DNA from: Chiloscyllium plagiosum
Taxonomy: Eukaryota
Assembly (NCBI RefSeq): GCF_004010195.1
Contig: NC_057759.1
Coordinates: 343,518 to 407,517, forward strand
Reading direction: 5' to 3'
DNA length: 64,000 nucleotides
The translations under genes were made by a program, and so were the position numbers. The notes beneath the pieces were generated by a model that was not told the DNA's origin, made no database searches, and saw only the letters and a list, made by a program, of their open reading frames with translations. Positions 1 to 64,000 of this stretch are shown in pieces (positions within the stretch are counted from its first letter, which is position 1; each line of letters begins with the position of its first letter).

Positions 1-130
1 GGAGGAAACCCACGCAGACACGGGGAGAATGTGCAAACTCCACACAGTCAGTCGCCTGAGTCGGGAATTGAACCCGGGTCTCTGGCACTGTGAGGCAGCA
101 GTGCTAACCACTGTGCCACCGTGCCGCCCA
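1..130 (-). mobile_element. HE1/V-SINE-type tRNA-derived SINE, 5' part (cut by window edge)
   Basis: Reverse complement reads GGGCGGCACGGTGGCACAGTGGTTAGCACTGCTGCCTCACAGTGCCAGAGACCCGGGTTCAATTCCC (pol III A/B-box head); same family as 18166-18486. Confidence 0.85.
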
Positions 131-8874: not shown

Positions 8875-11400
8875 TCCTTATCTATCCATACCTGTCAGTT
8901 CCTGCTCAGTAAATGTGTGAAGATAATTATCAAGATGTACCTGTTAAATGCTGCTCTGTGAATATCTGAGTGTAGTTTATCAAACTGTAATTATCAATCT
9001 GTATAATCTGTGCAAATATGTGAGTGAATGCAGTATTCAATCTGTCCCGGTCACTCTCTGGTAAATATATTTACATTTTCTCATCACAGAGACAAATAGG
9101 GACAGACTAATAACTGCACTCATACATTCACATACCATAAACCGACAGGTGCAGATTGGTAACTGAACTCCTGTGGCCACATAAAGGAAACTGCCAGGGA
9201 CTGGTTGATAAATACATTTCAAACATTTTAAATAAATAGGATCAGTCCCTAGTGTTTCTCTGATGTGGATATGCAAGTTTAGTTATCAATATATATATAC
9301 CTGTCAGTTTCTGCCCTGCAAATGTGCATGTTTGCTTTGCCAATCTGTCCCTAAAAGTTTCTGCTGTGTACCTGCGAGTGTAGTTATCAACCTGAACCTG
9401 TCAGTTTCAGTTTTGAGAATGCGAGTTTCGATATTAATCTCTACCTGTCACTTTCTGCTGTATGAATATTAAATGCAGTCATCAATTTGTACCTAACAGT
9501 TTATTCTGTGAGAATGTAGATATTGATCTCTACCTGTACGTTTAAGCTATATCAGTATGGGAGAGCAATTATCAAACAATATCTGTCAGGTTTTGCTATT
9601 TGACACCAGAGTGTTACTGTTTCTACTATGTCAATATGACGGTGCAGATACCAATCTGTCCCTGTCAGATTCTTCCCTGTCAATATGTGAATACAGTTAT
9701 TGAGCAGTACCCATCAGCTTCTGCTCTGTGAATGTGGGTGTATTAATCAAACTGTAGCTGTCAGCTTCAGTGATGTGAATGTGGGAATAGAGTTATCGTT
9801 CTCTACCTGTCATTTTCTTCTTTGTCAAAGTGAGTGGAACTGTCAATCTGTATCTTTCAGACTCTGTTGTGTGAATACATAAATATAGATGTCAATCTGT
9901 AGCTGTCAGTTTCTGCTTGGTGAATATGTTTGTGTAATAGCCAATCTTTCCAATTTCTACTATGTGAATGTGTGAACTGAGTTTTCACCTGTCACTATCC
10001 ATTTCTGCTTTGTGAATGTGAGAGTTTAGTTATCACTCTTTCCCTGTCAGGCTCTGTAATATCAATGTTTTGAGTGTATTTACTCATCGTTTCCTGTCAG
10101 TTTGTGTGACTGTAGTTATCAACTGGTACCTCTTAGATTCTGCTATGTGAATATGTGAGTGTAATTATCCGTTTCATTTGATCTGACTTATTATTCTCAC
10201 ACACACTGACATACAATGAAAAGTATTGTTTTGTGTACTTAACAGGCAAATAATATCAGACAAAATGCATCAGGGTAATAGAACAGAATCTGTAATACAG
10301 TATTAAAGCTGCAAAGAGAGAGAGATTAACATTAAAATTTGAGCAAGATTAGAGTGGTGCTGGAAAAGCACAGCAGGTCAGGCAGCATCTGAGGAGCAGG
10401 AAACAAAATCGACATTTCAGGCAAAAGCCTTTCATCAGGAATGCCCGAAACGTCAATTTTCCTGCTCCTCGGATGCTGCCTGACCGAAACGTCGATTCTC
10501 CTGTTCCCTGGATGCTGCCTGACCTGCTGCGCTTTTCCAGCAACACATTTTCTGCTCTGATCTCCAGCATCTGTTGCATTTGAAGTGACATGCAACAGCA
10601 AGCTCAGGGTCTTTTTGTCTGGATAGAATGTAGGCGTTCTGAAAAGTGGACACCCATTCTGCGTTCAGTTTCCCCAACATAGAGGAGACCACATTGTGTG
10701 CATTTTCCTTGCCTCTGAGGACCAGTCACTGGACCTGAAATGCTGCCAGACCTGTGAATTTTCCACCAATTTTTGTTTTGTTATCAATCTCTCGCTGGGA
10801 GTTTCTTCTCTGTGAATATCGTTATCAAAGTGTACACATCAACTTATGTGATTTGAAATTGGGAGCATAATCAATCTATTCCTGTCAGTTTCTGCTTTGT
10901 GAATATGAGAGTGTAGTTATCAATCTTTCTCTGAAATTTACTGCCACCTGCATGTGAGTTATTTACCAACCTGTCCCTGTCAGATTCTGCTCTGTGCATC
11001 TGAGAGTGCAGTTAATAAACTGTATCTGTCAGCTTCTTATTTATAAATGTGCAATTTAATTTATCATCCTGTACCTGTCAGGTTTTGCTGTGCAAATCTG
11101 TTAGTCTAGTTATTAACCTGTACCTGTCATGTGTGTGTGCATGATTATTGTTCTCTCCCTTTCAGTTTCTGCAATATGAATATGTGAGAACAGATATCAA
11201 TCGATGTCTGTCAGTTTTGGTTGTGTCCATACGAGAGTTTAGGACTTGATGTATAAATGTCAATTTCTGCTGTGTCCATGTGTGAATTTAGGAATTGATC
11301 TATACATGCCAGTTTCTGCTGTATCACTGAGAGTGAAGTTCTCAATGAGTTCCAGTCACTTTCAACTCTTCTATCAAATTTGCTCAATTCTCTGGCAACC
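8875..11400 (+). repeat. Degenerate minisatellite, period ~47-49 bp (consensus like gttatcaatctgtacctgtcagtttctgctctgtgaatgtgagtgta), interrupted at ~10180-10785
   Basis: ctgtca core recurs at 10977, 11026, 11075 and 11124 (49-bp spacing) and throughout; a few inverted units at ~9060-9240. Confidence 0.85.
10350..10785. mobile_element. Cluster of PLE-related pieces: inverted short hammerhead-bearing repeats and a GIY-YIG fragment (10578-10702, minus)
   Basis: Minus strand encodes CTQCGLLYVGETERRMGVHFSERL / KDPELAVACHF; minus-strand CTGATGA-A-AGGCTTTTGCCT-GAAATGTC at 10411-10438. Confidence 0.75.
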
Positions 11401-17100: not shown

Positions 17101-17495
17101 ACAGTGAGTGTAACATCAACAGTAGGCAAACAGTTGAGGGGATTCTGAGAGGCAGGATTTACATCTTTTTGAAAGGCCAGGATTGATTGGATTAGGCAAC
17201 GTGACTTTCTGCGTGGGAAGTCATGTATCACTAACTCGACTGGGTTTATTTGAATTGGTAAGGAAGAGGACTGATGAGTTGAAAAATGTGGTGCTGGAAA
17301 AAGCCCTTCCTGAAGAAGGGTTTATTCTCCTGCTCCTCGGTCTCCTGCTCCTCAGATGATGCCTGGCCTGCTGTGTTTTTCCAGCACCACATTTTTCAAC
17401 TCATCAGTCCTCTTCCTTACCAATTCAAATAAGTAAGGAAAAGCCAGGGAACTATTGAACAGTGAGTGTAACATCAACAGTAGTCAAACAGTTGA

Positions 17496-20358: not shown

Positions 20359-21015
20359 ATGAGCGACAATGCAGCCGCCGAAACGGCTCCTCCAGCCGCC
20401 GCTCCCACCAAAGCCAAGGCTCCCAAGAAGAAGGTGGCAGCTCCCAGGAAAAGAACACCCGGTCCCGGGTTGGGAGAGCTGATTCTGAAGGTTGTCGGGG
20501 ATATCAAGGATCGCAGAGGGGCGTGTCTGTCCGCTATAAAGAAGGCGCTGGAGAGAAGCGGGATCGATGTGGGAAAGCGAAAGGCACAGATCAGGGTGAG
20601 TAACAAAAGGTGCCTGGCGAACGGCTCCCTTGTTCTGGTCAAGGGCCAGGGCGTCTCCGGCTCCTTCAAACTCCCGAAGAATCCAGTCAAGGCAAAAGCG
20701 GGAAAGAAGGCGGGAACATCAGCGGCCGTCAAGAAACCGGCCGTGAAGAAATCACCGTCCAAGAAGGCGACAGCCAAGAAATCCCAGGCCAAGAAAGCGA
20801 CAGCCAAGAAATCACCAGCCAAGAAAGCGAGCGGCAAGAAGCTGGCACCGCCAAAGAAAGCGGTGAGCAAAGCAGCGACAAAGAAACGGACTCTCGTGAA
20901 GAAGGTGAAAAAGTCCAAGGGCCCTAAAACCCCCAAACCCCTCAGCAAACCGGCTAAAAGCAAGGCCAAGCCCAAAGCAAAAGTGACCAAGACAGCAGCA
21001 AAGAAATCGGTGTAA
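20359..21015 (+). CDS. H1: Linker histone H1 (218 aa, intronless)
   Basis: MSDNAAAETAPP N-tail; winged-helix globular domain ending KGQGVSGSFKL; K/A/P-rich C-tail with SPxK motifs; the real ATG is at 20359 (ORF track starts at an upstream GTG). Confidence 0.95.
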   Translation: MSDNAAAETAPPAAAPTKAKAPKKKVAAPRKRTPGPGLGELILKVVGDIKDRRGACLSAIKKALERSGIDVGKRKAQIRVSNKRCLANGSLVLVKGQGVSGSFKLPKNPVKAKAGKKAGTSAAVKKPAVKKSPSKKATAKKSQAKKATAKKSPAKKASGKKLAPPKKAVSKAATKKRTLVKKVKKSKGPKTPKPLSKPAKSKAKPKAKVTKTAAKKSV

Positions 21016-30757: not shown

Positions 30758-31348
30758 TCATTTGTGAGGTTTCTTGTGCCTCCACAGACTGGAATACTGA
30801 GTGAATTCTTTCCCACACTCAGAACATATGAATGACTTCTTCCTAGTATGACCTAATTTGTGTGCCTGTAGGACAGATAAATATCTGAATCGCTTCCCAC
30901 ACTTGGAGCATTTGAATGGCTTTTCCCCTGTGTGGATGCGTTGGTGTCTCACGAAGGCTGATGACACAGTGAATTCTTTTCCACAATCAGAGCAGGGAAA
31001 TGGCCTCTCCCCAGTGTGAACTCATTGGTGCATGCGCAGGCTGGATAACTGCGTGAACACTTTTCCACACTCCAAGCAGGTAGGTGGCCTCTTCCCTGTG
31101 TGAACTTGCTGGTGTGTCAACAGGGTGAAATACTCACAGAACGTCTTGTCACACTCAGAGCAGGTGAATGGTCTCTCTGCAGTGGCATCACGCTGGTGTA
31201 TCCACAAGGCAGACGAATCAAGGAATCCCTTCCCACATTCGGTGCAGATGAACGGCCTCTCCCTGTAGTGACCACGTCGATGAAACTCCAGAGTTGACAG
31301 GGAATGGAATCCATTCCCACAATCATCACATTTCCATGGTTTCTCCAT
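30758..31348 (-). pseudogene. C2H2 zinc-finger gene, 7 fingers, one in-frame TGA (31022-31024)
   Basis: MEKPWKCDDCG start; ORFs 31022-31381 and 30758-30967 are in the same frame and joined by [19 protein letters not shown]; finger 2 lacks its last His. Confidence 0.9.
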
Positions 31349-32300: not shown

Positions 32301-33149
32301 TATGGGTCGGAACCTGGTGGGAACAGGAGTCCTGAAACGTTAATTCTGCTTTCTGTTCACAGATGCTGCCAGACTTGCTGAGCTTTTCCAACAATTCCTG
32401 TTTTTGTTTCTCATTTGCACCGGCCGCATTTTTGGCGGCTTTTATGAGGACTTAGAGACCTGGGTGGCAGCTTTTGGGGGAGCAGCGAAATAGGTGACTG
32501 TGACAGTGAATACCAGAAGCATCTTCAGGGAAGGAGATTTGGGCTAATAGCAAAGAGATCGTCAGATGAATTAGCAGTCCAAACTTAGACAATGAGGGAA
32601 TATGCGGGATATAGTGATTAATATACATAGACTGGGAAGTATATTCAGACCATGTAGAATAATGTGTTTGGAATGTCCAGCCTGTACTTATAAAACCATA
32701 TAATTCTTCTTGAGCAGTGACTGTGCATCAAGGATGATTCTTTTTCTATGCGTCCTGGGATTATTGGGTCGTTTAATGTTGAATCCGCAAGTACTGCCCA
32801 TGTGGGGCAGATGATATTTGCTGAAGCCAGTGTGGGTGTGATGGGTACATTTTCACATGCTTCTTCCAGTTATAACCTTTGTTTTCCATCTGGGGATATT
32901 TCAGATATCAAAATTGTTGTCTTCTTCAATGATACTTCTTTGCCAAATTGCATGTTTGGGGGCATTACATTTTTGTTTTTAAGAGAAAATGTGGAGTCAT
33001 ACTGAACACTGCTTGCTCAGATTACTGAGCTGCTTTGGAAGTCCTGTGTCAGACGTGCAATTGATGCGATCTGTAGTTGATTGTGCACAAGCAGTGCCTC
33101 AGTTCAAGACTCTTCAGTCTGATCTGCATTTTAATAACCACTTTCCTGG

Positions 33150-41407: not shown

Positions 41408-41627
41408 CCACTGCAGCGGACAGCTGGAACTGACAACCGGAAGCGGCAGATTCAAACCACTACAAATGCAGGAGGAAAGATCACAGAAACGCTTCACAGG
41501 AGGCTCCCAAGCACTGAGGATGTCACCTAGACAGGGGACGAAACGTCTGCAACACAAATTCCCAGCTCGGCGAACAGAACCACAGCTACGAGCACCCGAG
41601 CTACAAATCTTCTCACAGACTTTGAAC
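41408..41627 (+). mobile_element. Penelope 3' terminal (pLTR) fragment
   Basis: Near-identical to 51049-51262. Confidence 0.9.
41511..41550 (+). ncRNA. Minimal type-I hammerhead ribozyme motif, intact core
   Basis: GCA-CTGAGGA-T-GTCACCTAGACAGGGGAC-GAAAC-GTC-TGC: stem I GCA/TGC, stem II, palindromic ACGT in place of stem III. Confidence 0.8.
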
Positions 41628-47414: not shown

Positions 47415-48147
47415 TAAATACTGATGCAAGATCCTCGTTTAGTATCTCCCCCATCTCGTGCGGCTCCACACAAAGGCCATCTTGCTGATCTGTGAGGGGC
47501 TGAAAATGTGTTGCTGGAAAAGCACAGCAGGTCAGGCAGCATCCAAGGAGCAGGAGAATCGACGTTTCGGGCATGAGCCTTTCTTCCTGAAGAAGGGTTC
47601 ATGCCCGAAACGTCGATTCTCCTGCTCCTTGGATGCTGCCTGACCTGCTGCACTTTTCCAGCAACACATTTTCAGCTGATCTCCAGCATTTGCAGTCCTC
47701 ACTTTCTCCTAGAAGATCTTTGAGGGGGCCCTATTCTCTCCCTAGTTACCCTTTTGCCCTTGATGTATTTGTAAAAGCCCTTTGGATTCTCCTTAACTCT
47801 CTATTTGCCAAAGCTATCTCATGTCCCCTTTTTGCCCTTCTGATTTCTATCTTAAGTATACTCCTAATGCCTTTATACTCCCCAAAGGATTCACTCGATC
47901 TATCCTGTCTATGCCTGACATATGCTTCCTTCTTTTTCTTAAGCAAAATCTCAATTTCTTTAGTCATCCAGTATTCCCTGCACCTACCAGCCTTTCCTTT
48001 CACCCTAACAGGAATATACTTTCTCTGGACTCTCGTTATCTCATTTCTAAAGGCTTTCCATTTTCCAGCTGTCCCTTTACCTGTGAACATCTGCGCCCAG
48101 TCACCTTTTGAAAGTTCTTGCCTAATACCGTCAAAATTGGCCTTTCT
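47415..48147 (-). mobile_element. CR1 ORF2 fragment with a palindromic hammerhead-bearing insert (47499-47710)
   Basis: ORF 47746-48150 matches CR1 copies at 5530 and 16300. Confidence 0.85.
47584..47617 (+). ncRNA. Minimal hammerhead motif in a short repeat
   Basis: ttc-CTGAAGA-A-GGGT-TCAT-GCCC-GAAAC-GTC-gat. Confidence 0.7.
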
Positions 48148-48612: not shown

Positions 48613-51266
48613 TTGTGGTTCTGTTCGCCGAGCTGGGAATTTGTGTTGCAGACGTTTCGTTCCCTGTCTAGGTGACATCCTCAGTGCTTGGGAGCCTCCT
48701 GTGAAGTGCTTCTGTGATGTTTCCTCCGGCATTTATAGTGGTTTGTATCTGCCGCTTCCAGTTGTCAGTTCCAGCTGTCTGCTGCAGTGGCCGATATATT
48801 GGATCCAGGTCGATGTGCTTGTTGATAGAATCTGTGGATGAGTGCCATGCCTCTAGGAATTCCCTGGTTGTTCTCTGTTTGGCTTGTCCTATAAAAGTAG
48901 TGTTGTCCCAGTCAAACTCATGTTGCCTGTCATCCACGTGTGTGGCTACTAAGGATAGCTGGTCGTGTCGTTTCGTGGCTAGTTTGGTGTTGATGGATAC
49001 GGATCGTTAGCTATCTTCCTGTGTTTGTCCTATGTAGTGTTTTGTGCAGTCCTTGCATGGGATTTTGTACACTATATTGGTTTTGCTCATGCTGGGTATC
49101 GGACCCTTTGCCCTGGTGAGTTGTCATCTGAGAGTGGCTGTTGGTTTGTGTACTGTTATGAGTCCTAGTGGTCGTAGTAGTCTGGCTGTCAGTTCAGAAA
49201 AGTTCTTGATGTATGATAACGTGGCTAGTCCTTTGGGTTGTGGCATGTCCTCATTCCGTTGTCTTTCCCTTAGGCAACTGTTGATGAAATTGTAGGGGTA
49301 TCCATTTTTGGCGAATACATTGTAGAGGTGTTCTTCTTCCTCTTTTTGCAGCCCTGGTGTACTGCAGTGTGTTGTGGCCCTTTTGAACAGTGTCTTGATG
49401 CAACTTCTTTTGTGTGTGTTGGGGTGGTTGCTTTCGTAGTTCAGGACTTGGTCTGTGTGTGTGGCTTTCCTGTATACCTTTGTGGTGAATTCGCCGTTCG
49501 GTGTTCTCTGTACCATCACGTCTAGGAAAGGGAGTTGGTTTTCCTTTTCTTTCTCTCTAGTGAATCTGATTCCTGTGAGTGTGGCGTTGATGATCCGGTG
49601 TGTGTTCTCTATTTTATGTTTTTAATGATTACAAAGGTGTCATCTACATATCTTACTCAGAGTTTGGGTTGAATTTGTGGGAAGACTGTTTGTTCTAATC
49701 TTTGCATTACAGCTTCTGCTATGAGTCCAGAGATGCATGAGCCCATGGGTGTGCCATTGATTTGTTCATATATTTGGTTGTTGAATGTGAAGTGTGATGT
49801 GAGGCACAGGTCCAGTAGTTTGAGTATGCAGTCTTTGTTGATAGGTTCCCAGTCTTGTTGTCTGTTCTGTATGTCCAGCAGGTTGGCTACTGTTTCTCTG
49901 GCTAGGGTTTTGTTGATAGAGGTGAACAATGCCGTTACGTCGAATGAGACCATAGTTTCTTCCTTGTCTATATATATATTTCTGATGATGTCCAAGAATT
50001 CCTGTGTTGATTGTATAGATTGTCTGGATCCGCTGATCAGGTGTTTCAGTTTCTGCTGTAGTTCTTTAGCCAGTTTGTGTGATGGTGTCCCTGGTAGTGA
50101 TACTATGGGTCTGAGTGGGATGTCTGGTTTGTGTACTTTAGGTAGACCATATAATCTGTGGGTGGTGTTGCTTTCAGGATTCATTCTCTGTAGGTCAAAC
50201 CTGGTTATCTGTCCATTTTTTTGTAGGTTCCTCAATGTTGTTTATCCTATTGGTAAGCTGTGGGGTGGGGTCAAACCCTCTCTTTTGGTCGGTGTTGGTA
50301 TCTGCAAGTAGTCGTTGCGCTTTCTGGATGTACTCTGCTTTGTCCAGGATGACGGTCATTCTGCCTTTGCCTGCTGGTAGTATGATTATGTTCTTATCGT
50401 TTCTTAGTGTTTTTAGTGCTTCCCTCTCCTTGGTGTTGATGTGTGTTTGTCTTTTCCTTGTTATCAGGGGTACGAGACTTTGTCTCACTATGTTGTGTCT
50501 GAGACATAACAAACAAAGTATCGTCACACAATCACACAAACTGGCTAAACAACTACAACAGAAACCGAAACACCTAATCAGCTGATCCAGACACTCCATA
50601 CAGTCAACACAGGATTTCTTGGACATCAGAAGTATACATATAGACAAGGAAGAAACTATGGTCTCATTCGATGTAATGGCATTGTTCACCTCTATCAACA
50701 AAACCCTAGCCAGAGAAACAGTAGCCAACCTGCTGGACATACAGAACAGACAACAAGACTGGGAACCTATCAACAAAGACTGCATACTCAAACTACTGGA
50801 CAAAAGAAGTTGCATCAAGACACTGTTCAACAACTGATCCGTATCCATGAACACCAACTAGCCACGAAACGACACGACCAGCTATCCTTAGTAGCCACAC
50901 ACGCAGATGACAGGCAACATGAGTTTGCCTGGGACAACACTACTATTATAGGACAAGCCAAACAGAGAACAGCCAGGGAATTCCTGGAGGCATGGCACTC
51001 ATCCACAGATTCCATCAACAAACACATCGACCTGGACCCAATATACCGTCCACTGCAGCGGACAGCTGGAACTGACAACCGAAGCGGCAGATACAAATCA
51101 CTAAATGCCGGAGGAAACATCACAGAAGCGCTTCACAGGAGCCTCCCAAGCACCGAGGATGTCACCGACAGGGGACGAAACGTCTGCAACACAAATTCCC
51201 AGCTTGGTGAACAGAACCACAACGAGCACCCGAGCTTCAAATCTTCTCTACAAACTTTGAACACCT
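48613..51266 (-). mobile_element. Penelope-like retroelement: RT plus GIY-YIG on minus (48613-~50500) and an inverted, internally deleted copy on plus (~50500-51266)
   Basis: LYGLPKVHKPDIPLRPIVS, SFDVTALFT, GTPMGS, RYVDDTF (49633-49653), NIVYKIPCKDCTKHYIGQT; flanked by 11-bp direct repeat agcatttattg (48602-48612, 51267-51277). Confidence 0.95.
48648..48687 (-). ncRNA. Minimal hammerhead motif in the Penelope terminus
   Basis: GCA-CTGAGGA-T-GTCACCTAGACAGGGAAC-GAAAC-GTC-TGC; a mutated copy (CCGAGGA) lies at 51150-51187 +. Confidence 0.75.
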
Positions 51267-61834: not shown

Positions 61835-63351
61835 ATAGGAAATAAGAATAGTTGTTTAAGCGTCGAAGGAGACGTGAGAGGGACGACCGAGGACCACATC
61901 CCACCGGACAGTCTTTTAGGAAAAATGTTAAGAGATTGGAAGTACAATCCTCTGATGCGAGGAAAGGATAAAAAACAAATGATAAAATGTCAATGAAAAA
62001 CAGCCTTAGTCAGGAGGAATCAGATTATGCTTCGTGTCAGAAGGGCTCGTCGCTGAAGGGCTACTGAGGGTATATTTCGTAACTAACTTATAGCCAGACA
62101 TCTAGAAAAAGATTCAAAAGCTAGTGGAGTCATTGCAGGAAGCTCAAAGTGTCTGTGTGATATGGTGCCTGTGTGTGTGTGAGAGAGAGAAAAGAAAAGC
62201 TGTACAGCTAACAGAAAGTTTAACCCTTTGTGATTCGGTTTGAATGCACATTTGTTTGTTGGTGATTGAATGTTTGTGCTTTGTTCCCTGGAGCTTCAGA
62301 TCTGGGACTGTTTTGAATCTGATTTCTATTATGGAAATTTTAACATGATTTCTTTTAAGGTTAAGGATTTTACAGATTATGAAATAAAATGTTAACTCCT
62401 GCTCTTTTTACAGGTCATGACTGCCTTACTATCGGTTTCTAACTAGTCTCTTTTATCCTTACATAAAAGCGATTTATGGAGGACAGTTGAAGTCTCAGTT
62501 CAACACTAGATTGTAATAAATCAAAAAAAAATCCTATGGTTAAAATTGGTGACCTTGGATTCGGCCATTATTCATGCATTCGAATTTTTTTTTTAACTTG
62601 AATAGACAAATCCTTTTTAAGGCAGCTCTGGTTATTTCACGACCTATAGCATTGTAATTGAGCAATGACTGGTCAGGACTACTTAAGAAAACTAATTTTG
62701 GATTTAAATCAGGGGACTAAAACCAGGTAATTATAATGGATTTAAAGTTGGGAACTGTATGCATTTTACATTTTAAATATTAAACACTGAATAAATGAAT
62801 TTATAATATATAAATATATATTTACAAGTAAGATTCCAAAATGTATAGTTAGGAATAGGCTTTAAAGTTAGACAAACCATAAATTGTATTTGAGATTACA
62901 GGGAGCAAGAAATATTGCATTATTTCTTTTTTTAAAAAAAAAATCAAGGTCTAAACAAAACATTGGGTGATGAGGAATGGCCATGAGGTGGCCCTAAAGC
63001 TGTTTAGTTGGTTAAATCGGCTCAGCAATTGATCTGGCAACGTAACATGAGAAGCAGAAACAGAAGGCAAAAATAATGATAGCCACGGTTGATGAGGTAA
63101 TAAAGAAAAGGACACAACTAAAAGGAGAAGCCAACCGGAATGGTGGCGGGCAGCATGTTGAAAATAAGGGGAGGAGAAGGATTCGGGGAGGAGATGTTAA
63201 GGGGTCTGGTAGACAAGAACAAGGATCAAAGTGGAATTCCCCACAGGCAGGATGTTATTACTGTGGAAAGACAGGTCACTTTAAGAGAGAGTGTCTAGAT
63301 CTGAAAAAGGAAGTAAAGGTAGTGCCGTTTATGAACCTCAATGAAAAATAG
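61835..63351 (+). pseudogene. gag: Class I (HERV-I-like) ERV gag remnant: MA start and NC zinc knuckle, middle deleted or replaced
   Basis: (ATA)GNK..IPPDSLLGKMLRDWK..KKQMIKC at 61835-61996; KQKAKIMIAT..CYYCGKTGHFKREC (CCHC); TAG GGG TGT CAG gag-pol readthrough-type junction at 63349. Confidence 0.8.
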
Positions 63352-63618
63352 GGGTGTCAGGAGTTCCTGCCCCCGGGGAGAAGTCACAAGTGACTGGTAA
63401 ACAAACAGAACTGCATGATTACAGTTGTTAAAATGTTTTAGTCACTTGTTGCGTTTCCACCCTGAATTATATAATATATATAATTAATAATTAATATTTA
63501 TAATAAATCAATTGTGTTAGCCTGAATCAATATTAATTGGCAGGATTCCGTCATACATTCTCAGTGACCTGTCATATTGATTCATGGTTAATTTAAAACA
63601 TGACTGCATTAATTCATT

Positions 63619-63743
63619 CCTGAAGAAGGGCTCATGCCCGAAACATCGGTTCTCCTGCTCCTTGGATGCTGCCTGACCTGCTGCGCTTTTCCAGCAACAC
63701 ATTTTCAGCTCTGATCTCCAGCATCTGCTGTCCTCACTTTCTC
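63619..63743 (+). mobile_element. ~125-bp hammerhead-headed short element with a 15-bp flanking direct repeat
   Basis: CTGAAGA-A-GGGCTCATGCCC-GAAACATC at 63620-63647; ctgcattaattcatt at 63604-63618 and 63744-63758. Confidence 0.8.
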
Positions 63744-63789
63744 CTGCATTAATTCATTGTTAATTAAAGAATGAAAAGCTACGTTACTG

Positions 63790-64000
63790 GCCAGTGTGTG
63801 CAGGCAGTGGCAGCAACAGCCTTATTGGGAGACGAGAGTCGGAAACTTACTTTTTGGGGAGCCTTAATAGTCAGCACCCCACATCAGGTATGGACCATAT
63901 TAAATCAGAAAGTAGGACGATGGCTCACAGACCGTAGGATCTTGAAATATGAGACAATCTTAATAGAGCAGAATGACCGTGTGTTAGTCACAGACAGTTG
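63790..64000 (+). pseudogene. pol: ERV pol remnant (RT connection/tether region), frameshifted
   Basis: CVQAVAATALLGDESRKLTF / GGALIVSTPHQVWTILNQKVGRWLTDRRILKYETILIE. Confidence 0.85.

Follow-up and report, generated by a model that had tools for sequence, protein, structure and literature searches.

A 125-bp hammerhead-bearing insert in Chiloscyllium plagiosum as a probable terminal-repeat stub of a Penelope-like element, in a family whose copies mostly stop near the front of the ribozyme

Toward the right end of the window, by which we mean the whole 64,000-nt stretch of Chiloscyllium plagiosum DNA that was analyzed, a 125-nt insert (63619-63743) is bracketed by two copies of an exact 15-mer, found at 63604 and 63744 and nowhere else in the 64-kb window. 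The insert sits in an ERV-like repeat from which internal sequence has been deleted; a zinc knuckle lies upstream of the insertion (Pfam zf-CCHC, E 1.3e-5) and an RNase H match just past the window end, in locus L073 beyond 64000 (Pfam, E 2.6e-19). The AT-rich host segment is common to at least 40 genomic copies, 94-97% identical (40 scored matches, the window's own included). When window positions 61900-64000 are taken together with L073, they present a multi-copy ERV-like host in which this segment is placed between gag and the pol end, and the window's host copy is without some 300 bp present in most of the fetched paralogues. Out of the 40 host-repeat matches scored, 12 loci were fetched, one being the window's own copy, and in 11/11 of the others (L032-L042) the 15-mer is single and the hammerhead is absent. 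The 15-bp repeat is thus a true target-site duplication (TSD) and the insertion is real, and the initial annotation was right in placing a unit of about 125 bp with a 15-bp TSD inside an ERV, as a later arrival. The TSD ends overlap element sequence by 5 nt at the 5' junction and by 2 nt at the 3' junction, and the exact insert ends are therefore ambiguous by a few bases (Table 1). The start at the hammerhead core claimed by the same annotation needs one amendment, as the insert begins one base before the core, and one correction, as the predicted cut (63647/63648) lies inside the insert and is not its 5' boundary; likewise, of the stem I bases attc that had been assigned to the TSD end, att is TSD-derived and c is the first insert base. 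The marks of a SINE, pol III boxes (judged by eye, none seen) and a poly(A) or simple-repeat tail, are missing from the insert, whose end carries neither a poly(A) nor a tandem tail, as had been annotated.

Table 1. Features at the insertion locus and one further family copy in the window; signed positions count from C3 of the hammerhead core (63620), taken as 0.
Feature	Position	Strand	Basis or remark
Second family copy in the window, a head-to-head two-armed insertion	47499..47710	.	One arm tailed, the other not
Host gag-like remnant with zinc knuckle	63046..63351	+	Part of the internally deleted ERV-like repeat
Host AT-rich segment between gag and pol remnants	63378..63603	+	Insertion target
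Left TSD copy, 15 bp	63604..63618	+	Last 5 nt also match element -6..-2 (5' microhomology)
Inr-like motif	63614..63620	+	A at 63616 (-4) is the putative RNA start and first stem I base; from sequence, 5'-end peak and extra G in other copies
Minimal type I hammerhead	63616..63651	+	Sequence, stem II fold, alignment
Solo pLTR stub of a Penelope-like element (hammerhead, body, tail), 125 bp	63619..63743	+	Probable
G-to-A at CpG, position 16.2 (+25)	63645..63645	+	Breaks the C15.2-G16.2 pair
Predicted self-cleavage site, inside the insert	63647..63648	+	Between +27 and +28; hammerhead numbering
Optional PLE "tail" of about 35 nt	63710..63745	+	Between the two preferred 3' ends (putative RT start sites)
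Right TSD copy	63744..63758	+	First 2 nt also match element end
Host pol remnant leading to RNase H past the window end	63768..64000	+	The stretch itself is without a Pfam match

Judged by its sequence, the family fits a minimal type I hammerhead, with a conserved core, a stem II, a short stem I and a loopless helix III. In the window copy, the core CTGAAGA (63620-63626) is followed by an unpaired A (63627), a 4-bp stem II hairpin (63628-63639) and GAAAC (63640-63644), helix III has no loop, and the strands of stem I are 63616-63619 (-4..-1) and 63648-63651, the cut site being placed by established hammerhead numbering. The modal core is intact in 30/48 family copies. The GAAACATC variant remarked upon earlier in this copy is real, position +25 being G in 46/52 and A in 6/52 comparable copies, and a second change, G for A at +29, is seen in 0/52 of the comparable copies. 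As the A at +25 (16.2) breaks the C15.2-G16.2 pair and a G stands at +29, the hammerhead of the window copy, apparently damaged by CpG decay, is predicted to be impaired. An Rfam scan of the window gave 0 matches, hammerhead included, the folding stability of the unit was no better than that of shuffles (z about -0.1), and the catalytic fold was not returned by monomer or dimer structure predictions. A type III reading, with the cut just before -4, was rejected by eye, as helix III and helix I cannot pair in it. Published minimal hammerheads of Penelope-like elements (PLEs) share with this one a helix III without a loop, a short helix I, an unpaired base before stem II and a G10.1-C11.1 pair, and they too are mostly solo or in opposite-strand pairs, ascribed to truncated PLEs in the available text of that account; unlike them, the present family has a stem II of 4 bp and, in the window's subfamily, a U-U mismatch in stem I, and the same text names no cartilaginous fish (PMC4209133). 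Another, very homogeneous subfamily (L199, L201-L203, L206, L216-L218, L222) has a stem I of 4 bp without mismatch, differs at its 3' end, is linked to long ORFs and is probably younger. A second, unrelated family of minimal hammerheads is present in the window at 41514 (+) and 48684 (-). Its stem I is 3 bp long and its core ends in an ATG, as does that of the anole Poseidon element, and the family likely represents a Penelope/Poseidon-type element; a broken GIY-YIG-like frame is found upstream of the copy at 48684.

As to the identity of the insert, an internal 45-mer of the unit has 36,688 exact matches in the 3.56-Gb genome, compared to 0 for the reversed control, in keeping with the family of copies to which the initial annotation pointed. 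The unit and the terminus of PLE copies that encode RT-EN are >90% identical, and the upstream continuation of many unit copies is a 3' UTR and then an ORF. RT followed by the unit on the same strand is found in 12/20 long-ORF loci, and 7/8 of the others run into N gaps. The ORF of one locus, L224, matches RVT_1 above the Pfam cut-off (E 2.2e-7) and GIY-YIG just under it (E 2.8e-4, 21.5 bits, cut-off 22.6), and between RT and EN it encodes a Zn-finger-like cysteine linker, a feature given in the available text of one survey as common to the Neptune and Nematis clades (PMC8557442), the linker sequence thus pointing to one or the other of these two clades. At a single internally deleted locus, L140 (1/228 tail-bearing copies), the unit with its tail continues into a short UTR and then an ATG-initiated ORF start, and therefore the unit is also the upstream repeat. 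A complete pLTR-ORF-pLTR copy was not recovered, the 3' pLTR being seen in 12/20 long-ORF loci and the 5' pLTR with the ORF start in L140 only; L224 was considered as a full-length copy and rejected, its apparent 5' repeat being an unrelated older stub upstream. Because of the linkage to RT-EN ORFs (12/20 loci) and the continuation at L140, the unit is taken as the terminal repeat (pLTR) of an autonomous PLE, and we are confident that the insert is a pLTR stub of an element encoding RT and GIY-YIG. Two PLE ORF copies (L211 4564-5718 and L217) contain internal tandem duplications of 120-130-nt pieces. Elsewhere in the window, the same subfamily or older ones are represented again at 10354-10576, 17283-17395, 47499-47710 and 32362-32394, and three of these copies are two-armed or rearranged. 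Repeats of other kinds are also present, such as a 15/30-nt tandem repeat at 20721-20862, which would encode a lysine/alanine-rich stretch presumably resembling a histone H1 tail, and a tandem repeat of 84 bp at 30915-31106, a period that we take to be that of C2H2 zinc-finger arrays.

The ends of the unit were mapped on contig C1, in the first 100 of the 45-mer matches there. Its 3' ends fall at +89..92 in 41/100 copies and at +123..126 in 44/100, the lower mode being left-censored, as the search word ends at +89 and earlier ends are invisible. A head-to-head partner arm accompanies 57/100 copies, and exactly one arm is tailed in 53/57, a count in which both arms of a pair may be included; an exact flanking repeat of 8-22 nt is present in 19/100, some of the 8-mers probably by chance. 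At the level of sequence, all these hallmarks of PLEs are found: a 30-40-nt tail that may be present at one end, inverted copies adjacent to the 5' end, and long TSDs. The earlier suggestion that the unit is PLE-mobilized is supported. Solo pLTRs, tails and inverted arms have been published for PLEs, and the available text of the same two studies describes 5'-truncated and solo-pLTR insertions of EN+ PLEs in much the same terms, with RT plus C-terminal GIY-YIG, a pLTR, an inverted 5' copy, the optional tail of 30-40 nt on one of the arms, TSDs about 8-17 bp long and microhomology at the 5' junction (Arkhipova et al., 2013, PMC3846280; Craig et al., 2021, PMC8557442). In many TSD-defined loci the TSD opens with C or CT, the same bases with which the element ends, a hint that primer and template pair over 1-2 nt where RT starts.

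An alternative, and the one preferred in the initial annotation, is a stand-alone, retrozyme-like unit, an independent non-autonomous SINE- or retrozyme-like mini-family whose stubs are transcribed, self-cleave or circularize, and are remobilized in trans by PLE protein. Such a family would agree with the very high copy number (36,688 45-mer matches), with long units being far fewer than short ones, and with a recent preprint that, in its available text, derives animal retrozymes from pLTRs (Li et al., 2026, 10.64898/2026.07.22.740005); like the unit, animal non-LTR retrozymes are small and non-coding, carry a type I hammerhead, are PLE-related and have TSDs >4 bp. However, according to the available text of these accounts (Cervera and de la Pena, 2020, PMC7229834; Li et al., 2026, 10.64898/2026.07.22.740005), non-LTR retrozymes are tandem repeats with a hammerhead per unit and give circRNA, whereas the ribozyme here is minimal, the ends of the units are not cut sites, and arrays are nearly absent, with 23 tail-to-head junctions genome-wide in a search of the tail-bearing form and nothing larger than a dimer at the 20 junction loci fetched, so that the tandem organization of these retrozymes is not found. 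Stubs carry the same subfamily variants as ORF-linked copies, and unit copies pass without a break into longer ones truncated at the 5' side, 14 nt upstream of the core (-14) being reached by 12,819 exact matches. In addition, the RT start sites are where stubs end, which leaves them without the downstream RNA needed for insertion of Poseidon (PMC11167929), if that need may be transferred to this family. With the identity to a PLE terminus added to the grading, the near absence of arrays and the ends lying off the cleavage site, the stand-alone mini-family is not supported, and we regard it as improbable.

The 5' ends bear on the origin of the stubs as PLE fragments. After 6 N-limited copies were dropped from the 100, 65/94 5' ends lie at +10..-10 around the core start, where the 5'-end hazard is 0.060 per nt versus 0.003, 0.0065 and 0.0059 in neighboring bins, an approximately tenfold excess; the hazard of 0.022 in the -61..-150 bin is attributed to ungapped extension that stops at indels, gapped alignment having given longer extents. 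Only 2/94 ends are exactly at the ribozyme cut, and 7/94 within +26..+31. Most copies thus stop near one spot, and that spot is the front of the hammerhead, not its cut; a likely cause is that the RNA is copied from a point near its front out to its capped start. The tabulation of ends proposed in the initial annotation has therefore shown boundaries that are non-random relative to the ribozyme, and at the same time it has spoken against a boundary set by ribozyme cleavage. In a larger, overlapping set, 17/162 5' ends are at -4 and 18/162 at -3, and genome-wide 9,276 copies start at -4 and 9,490 at -3 behind a non-template base, each count following a filter that dropped roughly a quarter. A 5' boundary apparently shared by long copies was traced to the reference locus itself and rejected as an artefact. 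It might be proposed instead that PLE copies are simply 5'-truncated at random and that the clustering comes from hit selection or assembly gaps, given that heavy 5' truncation is general in PLEs according to the available text of PMC8557442, and that N gaps often end long copies (6/100 here being N-limited), but the hazard spike persists when selection is by an internal 45-mer and N-limited ends are removed, and a depth step is present at the same 5' position in independent public runs (DNA contigs, RNA reads). Random truncation is largely refuted by the hazard analysis, and we give it hardly any credence.

The bases preceding these ends provide a second line of evidence. At deduplicated loci, G precedes -4 in 33/62 non-templated junctions, compared to an expected fraction of 0.283 (P 3e-5), and it precedes -3 in 5/39 (-4 versus -3, Fisher P 4.5e-5), after 34/96 junctions at -4 and 21/60 at -3 were dropped as templated by another piece of the element. 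A hand tally of AT-context listings, with 12 and 6 entries dropped and with loci that overlap those of the former test, gave G before -4 in 51/88 and before -3 in 19/94. Where the TSD is exact, a single extra G that is absent from the target is seen at -4 in 4/17 cases (one further case having a single A) and at -3 in 0/15. The excess of G at -4 suggests a run-off cDNA from a capped RNA start, and the A at -4 lies in a motif resembling the Inr consensus, YYANWYY. In an unselected set, the six genomic-flank ends at -4 were G2, A2, T2, and the extra G is not present in the window copy. A sister subfamily whose base at -5 is T, not C, has no G excess, with 5 G and 7 A among the 12 usable of 100 listed junctions (hand tally), and most of its copies that reach -4 continue upstream; because of the T at -5, this replicate failed as designed. 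In the one run with mapped raw reads (poly(A) single-cell), no pile-up of read starts or ends was seen, and 94% of mapped reads run on into unrelated sequence, as expected of copies embedded in other transcripts. The available text of two studies provides precedents, with transcription starting within the pLTR of Drosophila Penelope (PMC2377424) and an untemplated G at the 5' junction of L1 interpreted as a copy of the cap (PMC9341517). Neither cap-G at PLE 5' junctions nor the family itself is described in the available text of the papers found by the literature search.

From these observations the following model may be drawn. On balance, a stub is probably a run-off cDNA, RT having started about 130 nt inside the PLE RNA and reached the capped 5' end. 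In the upstream pLTR, transcription would begin at -4, the A of the Inr-like motif, the GIY-YIG domain would nick AT-rich DNA, and RT would prime internally at +92 or +125, by analogy with the anole Poseidon in vitro, reach the cap after about 95-130 nt and often add a C opposite it. Microhomology could then attach the cDNA end to the target (in the window copy, 5 nt are common to both at the 5' junction). Alternatively, the end could be attached to a cDNA primed on the opposite strand, resulting in head-to-head arms, which Arkhipova attributes, in the available text, to self-priming on an antisense template (PMC3846280), or be transferred to the RNA 3' end, resulting in a long copy. Stubs would be dead-end products and not a self-propagating family. 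If the hammerhead of the downstream pLTR cut the RNA, -4..+27 would be repeated at both ends as a 32-nt terminal redundancy resembling the R region of retroviruses; this step of redundancy and strand transfer is the least supported part of the model and is offered tentatively. The proposition as a whole, that the commonest product is a fossil "strong-stop" cDNA with the cap copied as G, and that the hammerhead cuts the downstream repeat for a retrovirus-like strand transfer, is likewise possible but falls short of probable. As the ends cover some 20 nt and fall at -3 no less often than at -4, run-off needs trimming or microhomology as an added assumption.

Close to the model is the anole Poseidon studied in vitro (Anolis carolinensis; Frangieh et al., 2024, PMC11167929), which has its hammerhead near the pLTR-ORF junction, has ATT-rich targets, has two internal RT starts that bracket the tail, and has both target strands nicked and extended. 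Unlike Poseidon, the present family probably belongs to a different clade, has the cysteine linker between RT and EN, and has a long ORF that begins downstream of the tail and not in stem II. Hammerhead cleavage was dispensable for insertion in vitro in the anole system, and no RNA-seq reads ended at the cut (PMC11167929). The available text of that study is silent on the positions of genomic cDNA ends.

The main rival retains the PLE origin of the stubs, explaining the hotspot by RT stalling at a protein-bound hammerhead, or by 5'-3' exonuclease trimming of a read-through transcript down to an uncapped end at the base of stem I, the G coming from a choice of microhomology or from a switch to the cleaved RNA end, where a G is followed by the same four bases. 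It draws on the fact that -4 is exactly the first base of stem I, on the smear of ends over the core (+10..-10), on the recurrence of bases -4..-1 behind a G after the cut, on the sister subfamily without a G excess, and on the anole Poseidon hammerhead cleaving only with protein (PMC11167929). Against it, an RT moving 3' to 5' would have unwound stem I before -4, the G excess is confined to -4 and absent at -3, and the unit folds no better than shuffles. We consider stalling or trimming rather unlikely, and run-off from a capped start remains the preferred reading.

In conclusion, the class to which the insert belongs is already known, solo and opposite-strand minimal hammerheads from truncated PLEs having been published (PMC4209133, available text), and as a repeat the pLTR stub is ordinary; its value is as a record of mechanism. 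The available accounts of EN+ PLEs speak of variable truncation, and their text has neither a fixed hotspot at the hammerhead front nor an untemplated G (PMC8557442; PMC3846280), and both the regeneration of the terminal repeats of PLEs and the role of their hammerhead are stated as open in the available text of the literature (PMC2377424, PMC8557442, PMC11167929). The sharp 5' hotspot and the position-specific extra G predict the RNA start to the base, which makes the strand-transfer model directly testable. Such stubs are better annotated as PLE fragments than as new SINEs or retrozymes, and, if the model is true, it would cover at once pLTR regeneration, the tail, the inverted two-armed insertions and the function of the ribozyme, and the genome offers tens of thousands of junctions as a test.
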